DNA of 64,000 bases, taken from IMG/VR virus record IMGVR_UViG_3300003155_000137, positions 46,629 to 110,628 of that record; one strand, given 5' to 3'. This DNA comes from a virus. Its lineage: Duplodnaviria; Heunggongvirae; Uroviricota; Caudoviricetes. Every line of letters begins with the position of its first letter. The first letter of the stretch is position 1. A program made the translations under genes and the position numbers. The notes under the pieces were generated by a model, which saw nothing but the letters and a program-made list of their open reading frames with translations, was not told where the DNA came from and searched no databases. Below, piece by piece: positions 8,045 to 33,992 of the stretch.

Positions 8045-8117
8045 GGGGTATTGGCGCAGTTGGTAGCGCATCTGCTTTGCAAGCAGAGGGTCGCCGGTTC
8101 GAGTCCGGCATGCTCCA
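8045..8117 (+). tRNA. tRNA-Ala (anticodon UGC)
   Basis: Acceptor GGGGTAT/ATGCTCC, D-arm GCGC..GCGC, anticodon stem TCTGC/GCAGA with loop TTTGCAA, and T-arm GCCGG-TTCGAGT-CCGGC all fold. Confidence 0.8.
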
Positions 8118-8224
8118 CGATGCCGACGTCCGTGGTCTTCTCGTCATGGCCACGGATGGTCGGCGCGACGCCGGACGTGGTGTGCTTCCTCCTTTCGGTC
8201 ATGGGTTCTGACATCGTCCGGTTG

Positions 8225-8298
8225 GCCCGCCTAGCTCAGATGGCCAGAGCGGCCGCCTTGTAAGCGGCAGGTCGTCGGTTCGATCCCGACGGCGGGCT
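8225..8298 (+). tRNA. tRNA-Thr (anticodon UGU)
   Basis: Acceptor GCCCGCC/GGCGGGC, anticodon loop CTTGTAA and T-arm GTCGG-TTCGATC-CCGAC all fold. Confidence 0.8.
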
Positions 8299-8301
8299 CA
8301 T

Positions 8302-8374
8302 GCGTCCGTGGTGTCAATGGTCAGCACTTCTGCCTTCCACGCAGACGGAGCCGGTTCGAGTCCGGTCGGACGCT
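8302..8374 (+). tRNA. tRNA-Gly (anticodon UCC)
   Basis: Acceptor GCGTCCG/CGGACGC, anticodon loop CTTCCAC and T-arm GCCGG-TTCGAGT-CCGGT all fold. Confidence 0.75.
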
Positions 8375-21592: not shown

Positions 21593-22609
21593 ATGCCAAG
21601 CCGTGGAACAAAGGGGCTTCTTGCGGGCCTGACCCCGGAGATGCTGCTTGACGTCGAGCAGGAGTCCAAGGGGATACCGTTCGAGCCGATGGAGTTCTTC
21701 GAGTCCGACAGGTACTGCGGCATGAACCTGTATCCGATGCAGCGCCTTCTCCTGAAGATCATCAATCTCTACGAGGACTATACCGACCGTGAGAACCAGC
21801 TCATCGACCAATGGACGTCGACGTACTGTGATCGTGGATACCGTGTCGGCATCGTATCCGACGTCCGTGAGCGCATCCGCATTCTCAGGAGGAATGGGTA
21901 CAAGGCGTTCAACCAGATCATCCTGATACTTGGTCGAAGGGCATCCAAGACCACGCTGTGCGGTGCCCAATGGGCGCTTCATGACGCCCAACTCCTTTCC
22001 GAGGGGATTCCGAGGGTTTCCGACACCAGCAAACAGGATGACATCACCTACGGCATAGCGATGGCGACGACCGCCCAGCAGGCGCAGGAGTCGATCTTCG
22101 CAAGCTATTACCGGACGGTGGCGAATTGCCCTTGGTTCTCCAAGTACATCAAGCGAGTAACCCCGTTCGAGATCACCTACCAGACGCTTGAGGACAAGCT
22201 CAAGACGGTGGATATGATCGAGTCCGGAATCAACGTCGAACGCGAGCCGGTGAGCATGGTGTGCCGCCCCATCAGCTCCAACTCCGATTCCATCAGAGGT
22301 CGTCCTGTTGTTGACTTCTGCCTTGGCGAGGATTCCCTTGTCCGCATGTCTGACGGATCGGTAATGCGAATCGCCGACTTGTCCGTCGGAGACCACGTTT
22401 CCGCATTCAATGAGAATAATCCGAGTGTCCCCGAAGACGCAGAGGTGCTGGCGGTACATCATCTCAGGAAGCCGACGAAGCGTATATGGTTCGATGATGG
22501 AACATATATTGACGCGACCGACGAACACAGGTTCGTCAATGGTGATGGCGACTGGGTGGAGGTCAGGGACATGAGGCCCGGAGACACGATAATGGAGGGT
22601 GGTGAGTGA
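21593..22609 (+). CDS. Terminase large subunit N-terminal part (Walker A ATPase) fused to an intein N-terminal half
   Basis: TerL-type Walker A LGRRASKTT; the extein ends ...RPVVDF. Hint-N runs from C at 22319 (CLGEDSLV block A, ATDEH block B) to the stop at 22607-22609. Confidence 0.55.
   Translation: MPSRGTKGLLAGLTPEMLLDVEQESKGIPFEPMEFFESDRYCGMNLYPMQRLLLKIINLYEDYTDRENQLIDQWTSTYCDRGYRVGIVSDVRERIRILRRNGYKAFNQIILILGRRASKTTLCGAQWALHDAQLLSEGIPRVSDTSKQDDITYGIAMATTAQQAQESIFASYYRTVANCPWFSKYIKRVTPFEITYQTLEDKLKTVDMIESGINVEREPVSMVCRPISSNSDSIRGRPVVDFCLGEDSLVRMSDGSVMRIADLSVGDHVSAFNENNPSVPEDAEVLAVHHLRKPTKRIWFDDGTYIDATDEHRFVNGDGDWVEVRDMRPGDTIMEGGE
22319..22606 (+). other. Intein N-terminal half (Hint-N) of a split or fractured intein
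   Basis: Blocks A and B are present and the ORF stops right after Hint-N. Confidence 0.5.
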
Positions 22610-23589
22610 GCGTTTTGTCTGCTACTACGTATCGCGGCGTGAGAGTCGATGAGTCATTGATGCGGTGCCTTGAGTGCGATAGGTCGTTTTCGTCACTGGG
22701 AGGGCTGAGAAGGCATGCCGCCGGGCCTCGGCACAAGAATGGGTCGTCTCAGTGCGATGTGTGCGGAAAGCGATTCGACACACCAACCGGGGCGAGAATG
22801 CACATGCGCGTCCACAACATCGAGCTGAACGAACACGGTGAGCGCTCAGACGGTCCATTCGTGTGTAGCGTTTGCGGTAGAGAGTTCACGTCACTGCGAG
22901 GTCTTGGCAGCCACATCAGATATCATGACCCAAACTATCGCGAGTGGCGTCGTGGACTGCATTTCGGGAGGCAGATGAGCGCAGAGTCGAAAGAAAAGAT
23001 GCGCCAGACTCAGCTCAGGAAGTACAGTGATCCGGAGTTCTCAAAGCGAATGGCGGACTCGAAGAGAACGGTGGCCTCCAGAGCCAGGTACAGCGCCGCC
23101 AGAAGGCGTGTGATTGATGGCTATGATGACCAGCGTCTAATCGACCTGTCAAGGATGGCAATGGGAAATCTCGTGAGAACGATGTCTGGGGATTCCCGTG
23201 GCCATAGGAGCGTCCACCATTCGCAGAAGGCTGGTGACATCCATTGTGATTCCGACCTTGAGCTGAGATTCTGTCGAGACCTGGACGGGTTCGACAACGT
23301 GTTCGCTTATGGCAGATGTGACGACTGTATCGTGTATTCGTTCGATGGCAGGAGACACGTCTACAACCCAGACTTCTGTGTTCAGACCGACGAGGGCACG
23401 GTGATTGTTGAGATCAAGGGTGCAGACTCCGACCAGGTCAGGGCAAAGATGGATGCGGCGGTCGAGTATTATCGCAGATTGGGGCTTGAATATGTCCTCA
23501 TGTTTGAAGGCGATATCGAACGCTGTGAAGAACGTGGAAGATTCATGTATGGAGGAGGTGGTGCAGATGAAGCGGATTGCAAGGATTGA
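22606..23589 (+). CDS. Free-standing homing endonuclease (3 C2H2 fingers + NUMOD-like repeats + PD-(D/E)xK), copy 3, between the intein halves
   Basis: The GTG start overlaps the upstream stop (GTGA) and lies in a different frame from the intein. C2H2 fingers are CLECDRSF..H, CDVCGKRF..H and CSVCGREF..H. The nuclease motif is YNPDFCV...VEIK. Confidence 0.6.
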   Translation: MSVLSATTYRGVRVDESLMRCLECDRSFSSLGGLRRHAAGPRHKNGSSQCDVCGKRFDTPTGARMHMRVHNIELNEHGERSDGPFVCSVCGREFTSLRGLGSHIRYHDPNYREWRRGLHFGRQMSAESKEKMRQTQLRKYSDPEFSKRMADSKRTVASRARYSAARRRVIDGYDDQRLIDLSRMAMGNLVRTMSGDSRGHRSVHHSQKAGDIHCDSDLELRFCRDLDGFDNVFAYGRCDDCIVYSFDGRRHVYNPDFCVQTDEGTVIVEIKGADSDQVRAKMDAAVEYYRRLGLEYVLMFEGDIERCEERGRFMYGGGGADEADCKD

Positions 23590-23680
23590 GAACATCGGTG
23601 ACGCCGACGTCGTTGACATAACGACGAGTACGCACACGTTCATAGCCAATGGACTCAAGACCCACAACTGCTTCGATTAG
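23567..23680 (+). CDS. Intein C-terminal half (Hint-C) followed by only 3 extein residues (CFD) before a stop
   Basis: MKRIARIENIGDADVVDITTSTHTFIANGLKTHN|CFD* carries blocks F and G. Its ATG lies inside the 3' end of the HEG ORF. Confidence 0.5.
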   Translation: MKRIARIENIGDADVVDITTSTHTFIANGLKTHNCFD

Positions 23681-23700
23681 CGGACGAGGCGTTTTTCTCG

Positions 23701-24162: not shown

Positions 24163-24394
24163 AAATCATGGTGGGCCGTTCATAGTGACGGGGAGACACG
24201 AATACTCGCCGTTCTACGGGCGGACGCTGTTCTCGTCGTGGGATATCGATGTGGCGCGTGATGCAGCCATCAGGATAGCCGTTTCGGACCCGTCGTACAG
24301 GTCCGTGTCTTTGTCCCGTGGCGGTGAGACCATCATGACGGTGAACAGAAGACGCCACAGGTTCGGGCACACATTCGACATGTTGTGGAGGTGA
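24149..24394 (+). CDS. Hypothetical protein
   Basis: ORF. Confidence 0.25.
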   Translation: MSNHENHGGPFIVTGRHEYSPFYGRTLFSSWDIDVARDAAIRIAVSDPSYRSVSLSRGGETIMTVNRRRHRFGHTFDMLWR

Positions 24395-24503
24395 TGTCGA
24401 TGACTTCTAGAAAGCGCACGACGAGGCTACAGATGGTGCTGGTGGTTCTCGCCGCCTACGCATTCGGCGTTTTGGTGGAGAAGATGGCGGAAAGGATTTT
24501 CGG

Positions 24504-24722
24504 ATGAAGCACGCAATGGCCCATGAGCCGCGAAGGATTGATGTAAGCGTTAACGCATCGGCCGACGGTGATGGGGTGGTGCAGCTCGTCGTGTCGCTTG
24601 AAGACGATGGAATCCTCCCCGTCCGCATGGATTCGGAGTCGGCCAAGACGCTCGGCATCGCCCTGATAGAGGGGGCGGTCAAGTCGACCATGAAGACGCA
24701 GGTGGCCGACAATGGGGACTAA
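24504..24722 (+). CDS. Hypothetical protein
   Basis: ORF. Confidence 0.25.
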   Translation: MKHAMAHEPRRIDVSVNASADGDGVVQLVVSLEDDGILPVRMDSESAKTLGIALIEGAVKSTMKTQVADNGD

Positions 24723-25125
24723 CTACTATCTGCGTGAGCGCAAGCCCTACCGTACCGTTGTCACGTATGAGGGCGACCCTATCGACGGCAAGATCCTGAA
24801 CCGCGAGGAGCAGTACCGTGAATGCCATCTCTGCAAGCTGTCGTGGGGATGGCTTCCGCACATGGCGTGCGACCCGATATCCACCATCGGCGTGTCGTTC
24901 CGTTCCCTCAGGTCGATGGTGGAGTATGCGGCCCAGCATCCCGAGATGGCGATAGTCGACGAGTGCGGGGAGGAGCATGCGCTCTCCGAATTTAGCGACA
25001 TGGTGAGGCGATGGGGTCATGATGGCTTCGGATGCCCCAAGGACGCCCCTCCCCACGACCACCTCGGATTGCGCAGCTGGGTGGACGACGAGGGGTTCGA
25101 GTTCTCGGCCGTGGAGTTCTACTAG
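24712..25125 (+). CDS. Hypothetical protein
   Basis: ORF whose stop TAG sits inside the ACTAGAAACGCC repeat. Confidence 0.3.
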   Translation: MGTNYYLRERKPYRTVVTYEGDPIDGKILNREEQYRECHLCKLSWGWLPHMACDPISTIGVSFRSLRSMVEYAAQHPEMAIVDECGEEHALSEFSDMVRRWGHDGFGCPKDAPPHDHLGLRSWVDDEGFEFSAVEFY

Positions 25126-25132
25126 AAACGCC
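25117..25132 (+). repeat. Direct repeat GTTCTACTAGAAACGCC (left copy) flanking the IS remnant
   Basis: It matches 26869-26884, GTTCACTAGAAACGCC (12/12 core identity). A related CTAGAAAGCGC also occurs at 24407. Confidence 0.5.
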
Positions 25133-25387
25133 CTTGAGGCTGTTGACGAGCGATGAGAGTTGGATTGTCGCGGGGAAGGTGACCAGCAGGTGTACGTGGT
25201 CTTCCTCGCCGTTGAACTCATCCAAGGTGCATCCGAATTTCTCGCAGACGTTCCGCATGATGGTTTCGCAGTCTTCGAGGATGGGTTGCGTGAATGCTCC
25301 ACGCCGATATTTTGTCACGAACACCAAATGCGCGTGACAATCCCAAACCGCATGCCTTCCCTTACGTATCTGACCATCGTTTTGCAT
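25133..25387 (-). pseudogene. tnpA: IS200/IS605 TnpA (Y1 HUH transposase), 3'-truncated so the catalytic Tyr region is lost
   Basis: MQNDGQIRKGRHAVWDCHAHLVFVTKYRRGAF...EEDHVHLLVTFPATIQLSSLVNSLKGVSSR, then the junction. The HUH motif is HVHLL. Confidence 0.5.
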
Positions 25388-25396
25388 GACACCAAG

Positions 25397-25402
25397 TATA
25401 AT
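25397..25402 (+). promoter_or_regulatory. TATAAT -10 box upstream of tnpB, in the divergent tnpA/tnpB intergenic region
   Basis: AGTATAATGAG, 25 nt before the ATG, with the RBS TGGAGG. Confidence 0.3.
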
Positions 25403-25426
25403 GAGAGATGTCTGGAGGTGAATTGA

Positions 25427-26689
25427 ATGACACTCGATGAAGTCGGTATCGCCGAACGGAACAAACGCATAGGCGAATCCCGCAAGGTCACGAAGCTGCG
25501 GCGTAAACATCAGGTGTGCCGCGCGTTCACCTGCAAAATCGACTACTGGAAGCTCAAAGCCGAACAGCGGGAAGCCCTGTCCCAATTGTTCTTGGATGCG
25601 AAGCGCCTTTACAACGACTGCGTCACGTCCGAGGACGTGTTCTCCTACACACCTGCCCGCGTCGTGAACGTGAGGATGAAGGACGGGAGCTTCAGGCAAA
25701 GGGAACTCGCCCGTATCGGCGTCCAGACCATGCAGGGCGTCATCCAACAGGCCAAGGACAACATTCGCGGACTGTCCAAGCTCAAGGAGAAAGGGTACAA
25801 GGTCGGCGGACTCAAACCGGTCAAATGCTTCAACAGCATCCCGTTGAAGCAACCCGGACGAACCTACCGGCTGAACGGCAACTACATCCATGTCGAGCGC
25901 ATACCCGGCGTGATGCATCTGACCGGGGTGAAGCAGCTCAAGGGCTGGGAGATAGGTCCGGCGAAACTTCTCCGCAAGGCAAGCGGCTACTATGTCGCGT
26001 TCTCCTGCTTCAAGGACAAAATGGAATACGATGAGGGCAAGACCTACAATCCGCCGCCAGCAATACCCATCGGTGGGGTTGACGCCGGGCTGAAGGATGA
26101 AATCACCGAATCCGACGGAACGAAGACCACACGCCGCTATCCGGACACCACCAAACTCCGCTACTGGCAGCGGCGCATGAGCAAACGCGACAGGAACACC
26201 AACAACTGGCGGGAGGCGAACCGCCAATACCGCAAGGAACAGGACAGGCTCAAGGCGCAACGCAAGCACGCCGCCATAGAGGAGGCGCGCCGGCTGACCG
26301 GCAAATACGCGACACTCGTCATCCAAGACGAGCAAATCCACTCATGGAACAAACGCGAAGGATATGCGCGGGGCGGCAGGAAAATCCATGCCGGAATCCT
26401 CGGACGCCTATACGCGACGCTCAAACAACGACCCAATGTCATCGTCTTGGACAAGTGGCAGCCGACGACATCATGGTGCCGGTATTGCGGACGACGAACA
26501 CCATGCCCGGTAAGTCAACGCACATTCACCTGCATGTACTGCGGCGCACAGGAAGACCGCGACCAGCACGCCGCGCTCAACATGCCGGTACTCCAAGAGC
26601 AGCCACTAACCCACGTAGACCTTCGAAAACCACGGGACATCCCCATCGGGCCATACCTCGGTAACGCGCGTACCCGGAACGCCCGCTGA
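25427..26689 (+). CDS. tnpB: TnpB (OrfB; RuvC-like, RNA-guided nuclease family of IS200/IS605)
   Basis: The C-terminus has a zinc finger (CRYCGRRTPCPVSQRTFTCMYCG), a RuvC-III region and the typical K/R-rich linker. Confidence 0.75.
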   Translation: MTLDEVGIAERNKRIGESRKVTKLRRKHQVCRAFTCKIDYWKLKAEQREALSQLFLDAKRLYNDCVTSEDVFSYTPARVVNVRMKDGSFRQRELARIGVQTMQGVIQQAKDNIRGLSKLKEKGYKVGGLKPVKCFNSIPLKQPGRTYRLNGNYIHVERIPGVMHLTGVKQLKGWEIGPAKLLRKASGYYVAFSCFKDKMEYDEGKTYNPPPAIPIGGVDAGLKDEITESDGTKTTRRYPDTTKLRYWQRRMSKRDRNTNNWREANRQYRKEQDRLKAQRKHAAIEEARRLTGKYATLVIQDEQIHSWNKREGYARGGRKIHAGILGRLYATLKQRPNVIVLDKWQPTTSWCRYCGRRTPCPVSQRTFTCMYCGAQEDRDQHAALNMPVLQEQPLTHVDLRKPRDIPIGPYLGNARTRNAR

Positions 26690-26872
26690 CCCCGCAAACA
26701 CAACCCAGAAGCATAATGACGAAACAAAACCAAGACTCCCCTGTGAACAGGGGTTCGGTAGCGGTGCCAAGAACACCCCGCCCATGCATAAGACCAACAG
26801 GCATCCAGTCGGAAGCCTCACGGCAACCGGGCGAAACCCGAGAAGCCCCCGCCCTCGGGCGGAGCGTAGTTC
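26690..26872 (+). ncRNA. Candidate right-end/omega-RNA scaffold region of tnpB
   Basis: Hairpins CCCCTGTGAACAGGGG and CCCGCCCTCGGGCGG lie immediately 3' of tnpB, as expected for an IS605 right end. Confidence 0.25.
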
Positions 26873-26884
26873 ACTAGAAACGCC
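26869..26884 (+). repeat. Direct repeat GTTCACTAGAAACGCC (right copy)
   Basis: See 25117-25132. Confidence 0.5.
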
Positions 26885-26890
26885 GATACT

Positions 26891-26918
26891 TTACAAAATA
26901 TCGAATCAATGATATTAT
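26891..26918 (+). promoter_or_regulatory. Candidate sigma70-like promoter TTACAA-N16-TATTAT in an AT-rich palindromic region
   Basis: The region is AT-rich and contains the CGATACTTT/AAATATCG palindrome, 44 nt upstream of the ATG at 26962. Confidence 0.3.
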
Positions 26919-32742: not shown

Positions 32743-32748
32743 TATAAT
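32743..32748 (+). promoter_or_regulatory. TATAAT -10 box upstream of the second tnpB
   Basis: GATATAATTGG, 24 nt before the ATG at 32772, with the RBS TGGAGG. Confidence 0.3.
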
Positions 32749-32771
32749 TGGTTTGTTATTGGAGGTTTGTC

Positions 32772-33992
32772 ATGGCTGAGCTGACGTTGACGATGCGCGC
32801 CCGTCTGCTGCCCACACCGGAGCAGCAGACGCGGCTCGCCGCATTGTGTTCGACGTTCGCCGACTGCTGCAACGACGTGGCCGACCACATCGACAAAACC
32901 CGGACGCTCAGCCAGAAGAAAATCAACAAGGCCATCTACCACCAGTTGCGCGAAGCGCACGGGCTGCTCGCCCAGATGACCCAATCCGCGATACGCCGGG
33001 TCATCGCCAACTACAAGGCCATCCACACGCGCATCAACAATCTCCGCGAGGAAAACAAGAACGGTGAGACGCGGGGAGGCAAGAAGCGGAAGATACCCGA
33101 GTATTACGGGATAAAGCCCCAGTACGCGCCCAACGGGTGCGACCTGCTGTGGAACCGCGACTACTCATACTCCCAACGGACCGAAATGTTCAGCCTCCCC
33201 GTCATGGACGGGCGCATCAAGGTGAAGGCCGAATGGAAAAACGTCCCCGACCAATACCGGCTGGGAAGGTTCGGCACAGCCCGTCTCATCCGCAGCCGCG
33301 ATAAATGGTATCTGCTCATCCCCGTTACCATCCAGACGCCGGACGTGACGGAACACCCCAAGACCATCGTCGGCGTGGACTTGGGCATACGATTCCTCGC
33401 CACCTCCTATGACGGCGAACACACCACATTCCACGACGGGAAGGAGGTGAAACACCGTCGCGGCAGATACAAGACTCTTCGCAAGGAATTGCAGCAGCGG
33501 GGCACGCGCAGCGCGAGGAAACGTCTCAAAGCCATCGGTAGTCGAGAAAACCGTTGGATGACCGATGTCAACCATCAGGTGTCTAAGGCACTCGTCAACC
33601 AGTACGGCAGGGACACGCTCTTCGCGCTCGAAGACCTCGAAGGAATCCGCAACGCCACCGAAAGGGTGAGGATGCGGCAGCGCTACGTGCAGGTGTCTTG
33701 GGCGTTCAGCCAGCTCCGTTCGTTCATCGGATACAAGGCGGCACGCAACGGTCAGGCCACGGTCGCGGTCGATCCCGCGTACACCAGCCAGACCTGCCCA
33801 CGATGCGGGCACGTGTCCGCAGGAAACAGGGACAAGCGGAACCACATCTTCATCTGCCGCAACTGCGGCTACCGGTCGAACGACGACCGGATAGGCGCAA
33901 TGAACCTGCGTCACAAAGGCTACGACCTGATCGTGATGCAGTACGACGCCAACATGATTGACGTCGCAGGGGTGCAGCCAACCATCCCGTGA
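32772..33992 (+). CDS. tnpB: TnpB (second copy, solo; no tnpA detected)
   Basis: The C-terminal CPRCGH...CRNCGY zinc finger and RuvC-like motifs are present. It is only distantly related to copy 1. Confidence 0.7.
   Translation: MAELTLTMRARLLPTPEQQTRLAALCSTFADCCNDVADHIDKTRTLSQKKINKAIYHQLREAHGLLAQMTQSAIRRVIANYKAIHTRINNLREENKNGETRGGKKRKIPEYYGIKPQYAPNGCDLLWNRDYSYSQRTEMFSLPVMDGRIKVKAEWKNVPDQYRLGRFGTARLIRSRDKWYLLIPVTIQTPDVTEHPKTIVGVDLGIRFLATSYDGEHTTFHDGKEVKHRRGRYKTLRKELQQRGTRSARKRLKAIGSRENRWMTDVNHQVSKALVNQYGRDTLFALEDLEGIRNATERVRMRQRYVQVSWAFSQLRSFIGYKAARNGQATVAVDPAYTSQTCPRCGHVSAGNRDKRNHIFICRNCGYRSNDDRIGAMNLRHKGYDLIVMQYDANMIDVAGVQPTIP

Follow-up and report, generated by a model that had tools for sequence, protein, structure and literature searches.

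What keeps a gene for a TnpB nuclease in a phage genome once the transposase gene beside it has been broken, and why should direct repeats bracket a member of a family that inserts without duplicating its target? Both questions are raised by a segment at 25133-26874 of the stretch analysed here (the window), a 64-kb part of a 137-kb contig from a chicken-gut metagenome (IMG/VR record IMGVR_UViG_3300003155_000137). TnpB is proposed to cut the site vacated by its transposon, so that the transposon is copied back, a role that has been shown in laboratory bacteria; to our knowledge, TnpA-independent spread of TnpB between co-resident genomes has been shown for plasmids and, so far, only proposed for phages. 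A first examination of the letters alone (hereafter, the sequence-only reading) took the segment for a decayed insertion sequence (IS) and a candidate domesticated nuclease. We find that it is an element of the IS200/IS605 family, with divergent tnpA and tnpB genes, inserted at the transposon-adjacent motif (TAM) TTCTAC between two phage genes, and that it is probably an immobilised, still selfish TnpB/omega-RNA homing cassette rather than a domesticated nuclease.

Empty sites in sister phages and the nature of the direct repeats

Relatives of this TnpB were found in public assemblies with 97% (L002), 86% (L009/L010) and 73-63% identity, and they provided five independent insertions for comparison (L002; L009/L010; L003-L008; L022-L028; L029; loci are cited by L numbers). 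The empty site predicted by the model reads ...GAGTTCTAC/TAGAAACGCCGATACTTTAC..., where, as in the other sequences below, the slash marks the junction. Exact-pattern scans of IMG/VR and of the JGI metagenomes for this site gave no match, and phages containing it were reached via homologues of the 137-aa protein encoded upstream of the element. Three sister phages without the element (L030, L031 and L032), which share 94-96% identity with the window in the flanks, show the site exactly as predicted, TTCTAC/TAGAAACGCCGATACTTTAC, with TAGAAACGCC occurring once. Since these phages carry the predicted site uninterrupted, the segment is an insertion. The comparison with related phages, which the sequence-only reading had put forward as a check, thus revealed absence of the segment and, with it, of the second copy of the repeated sequence.

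Copies of GTTC(T)ACTAGAAACGCC flank the element, with a left repeat, GTTCTACTAGAAACGCC, at 25116-25132 and a right repeat, GTTCACTAGAAACGCC, at 26869-26884. Direct repeats of 16 bp do therefore exist at both ends, as first noticed, with the left one starting at 25116 instead of one position later. The right repeat is made of the transposon terminus GTTCAC plus the first 10 nt of the presumptive guide (GTTCAC/TAGAAACGCC), and the left repeat of the TAM, with its context, and again these 10 nt (GTTCTAC/TAGAAACGCC), followed by the interior of tnpA (CTTGAGGCTG...). The repeat is a composite of a chance-like likeness of 6-7 nt, between GTTCTAC and GTTCAC, and of a genuine 10-bp target duplication. 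Exact 12-mers repeated within 5 kb occur in two other cases in the region, and this repeat gains its weight solely from where it lies and from the comparison with the empty sites. The suggestion that the repeats mark recombination boundaries, and were not duplicated by a transposase, was correct, whereas the proposal of a host or phage motif gives way to a look-alike of TAM and terminus followed by a duplicated target.

Loss of the left end and of the catalytic part of TnpA

The left end of the element in its relatives starts with C after TCTAC (four sites) or GCTAC (one site) and contains a subterminal hairpin (...CTAC/C..GAGAGTGCTCCACC-loop-GGTGGAGG), the arms of which covary between L002 and L003 (GCTCCACC/GGTGGAGG against GCGCCCGCC/GGCGGGTGG). 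This hairpin is missing in the window, where 10 nt of target come after the TAM and the interior of tnpA directly after these. The minus-strand tnpA remnant is identical to residues 1-90 of the 138-aa TnpA from L002 (100% identity by tblastn, with 1 nt difference in 255 nt), and residues 91-138, the YYCGT tyrosine region among them, are absent, confirming that the gene is truncated before the catalytic tyrosine. Full TnpA proteins of 138/139 aa adjoin tnpB in the autonomous relatives L002 and L009/L010. As this copy has neither the left-end hairpin nor the final 48 codons of tnpA, it cannot undergo excision or transposition, even with TnpA supplied in trans. The description of a decayed IS200/IS605 element thus holds for the family and for the dead tnpA, but it overstates the age of the copy, which retains 98% DNA identity to the autonomous element of L002 (34 differences in 1742 nt).

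The sequence at the left junction, CTAGAAACGCC/CTTGAGG in the window and CTGGATACGCC/CTTGAGG in the native tnpA from L002, is identical at 9 of 11 positions, with a perfectly matching ACGCC pentamer. This pentamer is present both at positions 6-10 of the target and in the interior of tnpA, and it constitutes the last 5 nt of 25123-25132 as microhomology at the crossover. These data indicate that the left junction would derive from recombination at ACGCC between an empty allele (TAM + TAGAAACGCC + GATAC...) and an occupied one, in the course of which the left end was lost together with the 3' third of tnpA. Other explanations were considered and rejected. A simple deletion within the occupied allele cannot make the extra TAGAA that stands beside the TAM. 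Aberrant excision by TnpA from a pseudo-site, ending in GGATAC or in CCGGC, predicts TTCTAC/GCCCTTGAGG or TTCTAC/TGGATACGCC, respectively, and the observed TTCTAC/TAGAAACGCC matches the target at 10/10 positions and native tnpA at only 8/10. An assembly artefact is ruled out by the recurrence of the junction in a second, independent assembly of the same run (L019) and in other samples. Additionally, a 12/13 match between the interior of tnpA (25301-25313) and the target (26880-26892) was attributed to chance; the region has many such matches, and this one encodes the conserved KYRR of TnpA.

The native residues GVSSR (86-90) of TnpA are still encoded in the minus-strand frame across the junction (25118-25132), because the duplicated target resembles native tnpA at 9/11 positions. 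From there, the reading frame of the remnant continues antisense through the upstream phage gene up to a stop at 24992, and it is possible that it specifies a 132-aa fusion protein containing only the HUH domain.

The right end and the presumptive guide

The right end, the omega-RNA region and the tnpB open reading frame (ORF) are complete. An alignment, from seven loci, of the right-end region, which is non-coding and measures 185 nt in the window, yielded 28 pairs predicted by RNAalifold, nine of them with compensatory changes. The region includes hairpins at 26738-26753 and, terminally, at 26848-26863, which precede the conserved terminus GTAGTTCAC (26866-26874). The omega-RNA scaffold may start further upstream, within the 3' end of tnpB, and no family in Rfam matches the right-end RNA. 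Among independent insertions, similarity on the right side ends exactly after GTAGTTCAC (that is, after GTTCAC) and the flanks then differ, from which we consider the ~16-20 nt following GTTCAC as the presumptive guide of the omega-RNA. In the window this guide (26875-26894) matches at 20/20 positions the sequence that follows TTCTAC in L030, L031 and L032.

All the named sources of close TnpB relatives are Bifidobacterium. Nevertheless, the terminus GTAGTTCAC and a GC-rich hairpin preceding it were also found at 2471-2479 of L001, next to the gene for a 31%-identical TnpB in a metagenome-assembled genome of Ructibacterium (Clostridia); therefore, the motif at the boundary of scaffold and guide reaches well beyond the Bifidobacterium elements.

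The TnpB protein

When aligned with the TnpB from ISDra2 (PDB 8EXA/8H1J), the predicted protein retains the RuvC-I and RuvC-III aspartates (D219 and D379, equivalent to D191 and D361), and these are invariant in the clade alignment, as are the four cysteines (C351, C354, C369 and C372) of a C4 zinc finger situated between RuvC-II and RuvC-III. The TnpB described earlier as intact is so in its ORF, zinc finger and these two aspartates, but not at the canonical RuvC-II glutamate, which is Gln300. The ratio of nonsynonymous to synonymous changes per site (pN/pS) is 0.30 against L002 and 0.22 against L034, values that are not a clean measure of the time after truncation because IS copies appear to have recombined (see below). 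Window and L034 differ in tnpB by 40 nt changes, 23 of them synonymous (p = 2.6e-6), and tnpB is, on this evidence, under purifying selection.

Alleles of the locus and mobile relatives

The locus is polymorphic among phages that are 91-96% related, in which empty, occupied and relic alleles were found. Two occupied loci from other runs (L034/L035) have the same left junction and an intact TnpB, 96% identical to that of the window. The relic allele (L033, 1030-1345) also shares the left junction, and its tnpA remnant and tnpB are deleted except for the last ~90 nt of the latter (CTTGAGGCTG/CAGCCACTAACC); the omega-RNA region is kept, with the loss of 3 nt (TAG) at the junction of right end and guide. 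The presence of this left junction in several samples means that it has been inherited or has spread. In the Logan assembly of SRR789046, the contigs L019/L021 break inside tnpB, one of them ending 96 nt into the gene and the other starting in its last 155 codons, which suggests further IS variants or copies in that sample.

Two groups of relatives illustrate other states of the family. The element of L003-L008 (e.g., L003 4860-6444) encodes a 73%-identical TnpB and lacks tnpA, with its covarying left-end hairpin intact after GCTAC, and is, judging by its ends, non-autonomous but mobilisable. It occupies a single site in phage-like contigs, by genes for a DNA methylase and a MvaI/BcnI-type restriction enzyme, in a cluster of 436 member sequences. 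The autonomous copy of L022-L028 (65% identity) is in an identical site in several samples, on contigs of 30-42 kb that code for a ParA-like protein and could be plasmids or phage-plasmids.

A homing model for the immobilised cassette

The recombination was most probably set off by the life cycle of the element itself, in which an empty site, supplied by TnpA excision or by co-infection, would be cut by TnpB with its omega-RNA 15-21 bp from the TAM, the distance of cleavage reported for the ISDra2 TnpB (PMC8612924). The cut would leave a left end containing the TAM plus 15-21 nt of target, which would be trimmed back to ACGCC (positions 6-10) and could then prime on the ACGCC within tnpA of an occupied template, so that microhomology would replace homology of the flank; the right side would be resolved through ordinary homology. 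The hypothetical full-length ancestor would have had a left-end junction reading GGAGTTCTAC/CGTTTTTGG.

Three features would make the product stable. Only 10 nt matching the guide are left beside the left TAM, with which the site should escape re-cutting; a 10-nt guide allowed binding, without cleavage, by the TnpB from ISDge10 (PMC13507860). Likewise, the native stop codon of the upstream gene would have been restored: the last sense codon (TAC) and the stop (TAG) of this gene straddle the insertion point, the native TAG being at 25123-25125, inside the duplicated 10 nt, and a full-length insertion with a left end of the L002 type would displace the stop and extend the 137-aa protein by 63 aa. 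Finally, excision by TnpA would no longer be possible. With its left end gone and no active TnpA, the cassette could be passed on only through descent or through TnpA-independent homing, a mode already discussed for TnpB as 'non-restorative homing' (PMC13565253). During co-infection, sister phages with the empty site would be cut and would receive the cassette by recombination, and the phage itself encodes a UvsX-like recombinase. The loss of nearly all of tnpB in L033 would fit the degeneration phase of a selfish element. More tentatively, the locus could represent a pure TnpA-independent homing cassette in a phage of virulent type, seen in empty, immobilised-active and omega-RNA-only states, its junction being the fossil of a mis-repaired TnpB break that survived through the 10-nt limit and the restored stop; this fuller account is possible, and we hold it with reserve.

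Evidence against homing, and alternative explanations

Several observations weigh against the interpretation of the element as a homing cassette. The canonical RuvC-II glutamate (E278 in ISDra2) is replaced in the predicted TnpB by Gln300, followed by D301 and E302 (QDE), and nuclease activity is assumed by analogy with described TnpB clades with a rearranged RuvC-II, for which activity was predicted (PMC10691335). The terminal hairpin of the right end contains one C.A mismatch in the window. Site patterns rooted on L009 are in conflict, with eight sites grouping window and L002, four grouping window and L034, and four grouping L034 and L002, indicating recombination between IS copies. A search of IMG/VR for the flank joined to a left end, as a full-length insertion here would show it, found none, and three matches in JGI metagenomes were due to chance and did not have the left-end hairpin, so the occupied parental allele is one that we infer. 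The junction shared by the different samples could have a single or a recurrent origin. Lastly, no cut by TnpB is needed to reach this product, which also results from template switching during replication or from unequal sister exchange and later excision by TnpA; the junction, therefore, does not establish TnpB as the trigger.

The differences specific to L034 cluster at 26037-26205, and divergence from L002 is uneven along the element, with 1 difference in 294 nt of the tnpA remnant plus intergenic region as against 26 within tnpB and 7 at the right end; both patterns suggest patches of gene conversion between IS copies.

The glutamine, the hairpin mismatch and the mosaic site patterns, taken as gene conversion, are also what would be expected of an inert wreck, a recently broken IS in decay with a junction formed, TnpB playing no part, by replication slippage or illegitimate recombination, a TnpB perhaps weak or dead, and an ORF kept open by recency or by repeated patching through gene conversion from autonomous copies. 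A divergence of just 2% from the autonomous copy and the survival of only the 3' tail of tnpB in L033 point the same way. We nonetheless think this unlikely: the motif Q-D-(E/D) is kept clade-wide, down to 30% identity and including autonomous elements present at multiple sites, which speaks for an active site that is rearranged and not dead; the tnpB genes of window and L034 both maintain a full ORF in spite of their separation, with a significant excess of synonymous changes; and the guide retains its perfect match beside the TAM in the sister phages.

Domestication, as proposed by the sequence-only reading, would imply that TnpB and its omega-RNA were co-opted as a nuclease or regulator, acting as a weapon against competing phages or binding DNA at the left junction so as to regulate the genes nearby. 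The immobility of the cassette, the selection on tnpB and the non-canonical RuvC-II position agree with it, and the TAM plus 10-nt match at the upstream stop codon resembles the kind of target bound without cutting by the ISDge10 TnpB. We judge this very improbable, since the guide still specifies the insertion site of the element itself instead of a new target, the cassette is either present or absent among 95%-identical phages, tnpB is almost wholly deleted in L033, the RuvC-II change is ancestral to a mobile clade and not particular to this copy, and no partner gene is conservedly associated.

A motif recurring in phage or host, or att-like sites between which the element merely lies, were suggested by the look of the repeats and by a similar-looking CTAGAAAGCGC at 24407; this reading is scarcely credible and, in our view, refuted by the single copy in the empty-site phages: ACTAGAAACGCC occurs at two places only in the 64 kb, and allowing ≤2 mismatches yields four matches against 2.85 expected by chance; the sequence at 24407 belongs to the first codons of a small gene (MTSRKR...) and is conserved in all the phages, those free of the element included; and the limits of the repeat coincide to the base with the transposon terminus and the TAM. 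The odd look of the region near 24407 is due to a deletion unrelated to the IS: at 24387-24404 the window lacks ~100 bp, encoding a small hydrophobic protein (MTASDWIFTILALGLVTFVSWLFNHDD...), that are present in L030 (3576-3693) and L033 (215-325), and the deletion falls between two 18-nt repeats resembling GGAGGTGA..GTCGATGAC.

Comparison with known systems

Full-length relatives of the element share with IS605, IS608 and ISDra2 the divergent genes for a Y1 HUH TnpA and a TnpB, as well as subterminal hairpins. Like them, they insert 3' of a conserved pentanucleotide without target duplication, and their right end doubles as scaffold of the omega-RNA, with a guide taken from the flank. In the elements studied here the TAM is (T/G)CTAC, the terminus is GTAGTTCAC and the clade has Gln at the canonical RuvC-II Glu. 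The copy in the window differs from the functional members of the family in its lack of the left end and of the catalytic tyrosine of TnpA, and in its 10-bp target duplication, which is secondary and is explained by secondary recombination.

The agreement with TnpB/omega-RNA homing (retention in Meers et al., 2023; PMC13565253) resides in a guide equal to the TAM-abutting sequence of the empty site and in the existence of empty sister genomes; cleavage followed by recombinational copying would, therefore, be the expected behaviour. Differences are that only the TnpA-independent mode would operate, that the residence is a genome of a lytic-type phage and not a chromosome or plasmid, and that the case is known from its sequence. 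A functional analogy can also be drawn with the free-standing homing endonucleases of phages (T4 Seg and Mob; intronless homing and marker exclusion), also intergenic cassettes present or absent in close relatives, which target the cassette-free allele and of which degenerated relics occur. Recognition would, however, depend here on an RNA guide and TAM instead of on the protein, and self-immunity would come from an interrupted target, with 10/20 nt left beside the TAM.

Among elements with tnpB and no tnpA, the IS1341-type IS of L003-L008 is similar to the window copy in possessing tnpB and a right end, but it has an intact left-end hairpin and would be mobilisable in trans, whereas the left end is missing altogether from the window copy. 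TnpB proteins that were exapted or inactivated (TldR and similar; PMC10705468, PMC10691335) are likewise immobile and have a non-canonical RuvC residue; conversely, the RuvC-II change is here common to mobile relatives, the guide was not retargeted, and the locus is polymorphic and decaying, with no fixed partner gene.

The element class is not new: copies of tnpB without tnpA are extremely common and many phage genomes contain TnpB genes, with matches in 136 GenBank phage records. We thus regard the element as an ordinary TnpB cassette of the IS605 family caught in an informative state. Empty, occupied and relic alleles, a perfect match between guide and target and a known TAM make of this locus a defined natural test system, in which any spread must be homing, as the cassette cannot transpose. 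Furthermore, the junction suggests that imprecise repair at the TnpB target could immobilise an element, a plausible first step towards fixed TnpB loci.

Features of the locus and of the source phage

The coordinates of the locus are collected in Table 1. The promoter-like site of the downstream gene belongs to the phage itself and shares nucleotides with the distal part of the target. Other promoter-like sites, detected only by a consensus scan, lie by the tnpA-tnpB intergenic region at 25422-25395 (minus strand) and 25312-25341 (plus strand).

Table 1. Features of the occupied locus in the window, in order of position.
Feature	Coordinates	Strand	Evidence
Upstream phage gene, 137 aa	24712..25125	+	ORF list; no Pfam match; sister-phage orthologues 96% and 91% identical
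TAM TTCTAC, core (T/G)CTAC	25117..25122	+	TCTAC or GCTAC before the left end in 5 independent insertions; empty site of L030-L032
Left copy of the first 10 nt of the target, TAGAAACGCC	25123..25132	+	Identical to 26875-26884; single in empty sites
tnpA remnant, HUH domain without catalytic Tyr	25133..25387	-	Pfam Y1_Tnp positions 2-79/121, E 5.8e-26
tnpA-tnpB divergent intergenic region	25388..25426		Identical to L002
tnpB, 420 aa, uninterrupted ORF	25427..26689	+	Pfam OrfB_IS605 + Cas12f1-like_TNB (E 7.6e-9)
Right end and presumptive omega-RNA scaffold	26690..26874	+	Alignment of 7 loci; RNAalifold
Presumptive guide / original target, TAGAAACGCCGATACTTTAC	26875..26894	+	Flanks diverge past GTTCAC; same as post-TAM sequence in L030-L032
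Promoter-like site of the downstream gene, TTTACA-17-TATTAT	26890..26918	+	Consensus scan; unchanged in empty-site phages
Downstream phage gene, 126 aa	26962..27342	+	In sister phages, starts 85 nt after the 137-aa gene

The phage genes encode a DNA polymerase, a UvsX-like recombinase, a DnaB-type helicase, a baseplate wedge protein, a tail sheath and an endolysin. The tail sheath is closest (~25% identity) to those of large actinobacteriophage myoviruses and, because of this, the source is a large phage, a myovirus of roughly 137 kb and actinobacterial type, with a probable actinobacterial host. Near-identical DNA was not found in the GenBank phage collection; a pattern scan of IMG/VR and GTDB genomes retrieved no close relatives of its TnpB, the sole match being the 31%-identical protein of L001, and scans of IMG/VR with the flanking genes returned only relatives of ≤35% identity.

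A second TnpB ORF, of 414 aa, lies at 32748-33992 (plus strand) and contains OrfB_IS605 and Cas12f1-like_TNB domains and a canonical 'LEDLE' RuvC-II motif. It belongs to a distant subfamily, being 19% identical to the TnpB at 25427-26689, and no tnpA is visible nearby; with two TnpB ORFs of differing subfamilies, the phage thus holds two different TnpB cassettes. Upstream of the locus, a gene for a TerL-like ATPase (Walker A GRRASKTT, Walker B VVDYVFDEA) is split by a 1.37-kb insertion (22317-23682) and is unbroken, with 403 aa, in the sister phages L030/L031. The insert begins with an intein-like CLGEDSLV and finishes in ...THN/C, in frames that do not join, and a 327-aa ORF (22606-23589) lies within it in a different frame, encoding several C2H2 zinc fingers together with a weak TnsA-like endonuclease domain; the insert would be either a degenerate or split intein with a nested homing-endonuclease gene or a frameshifted assembly. 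Three tRNA genes are clustered at 8045-8374.

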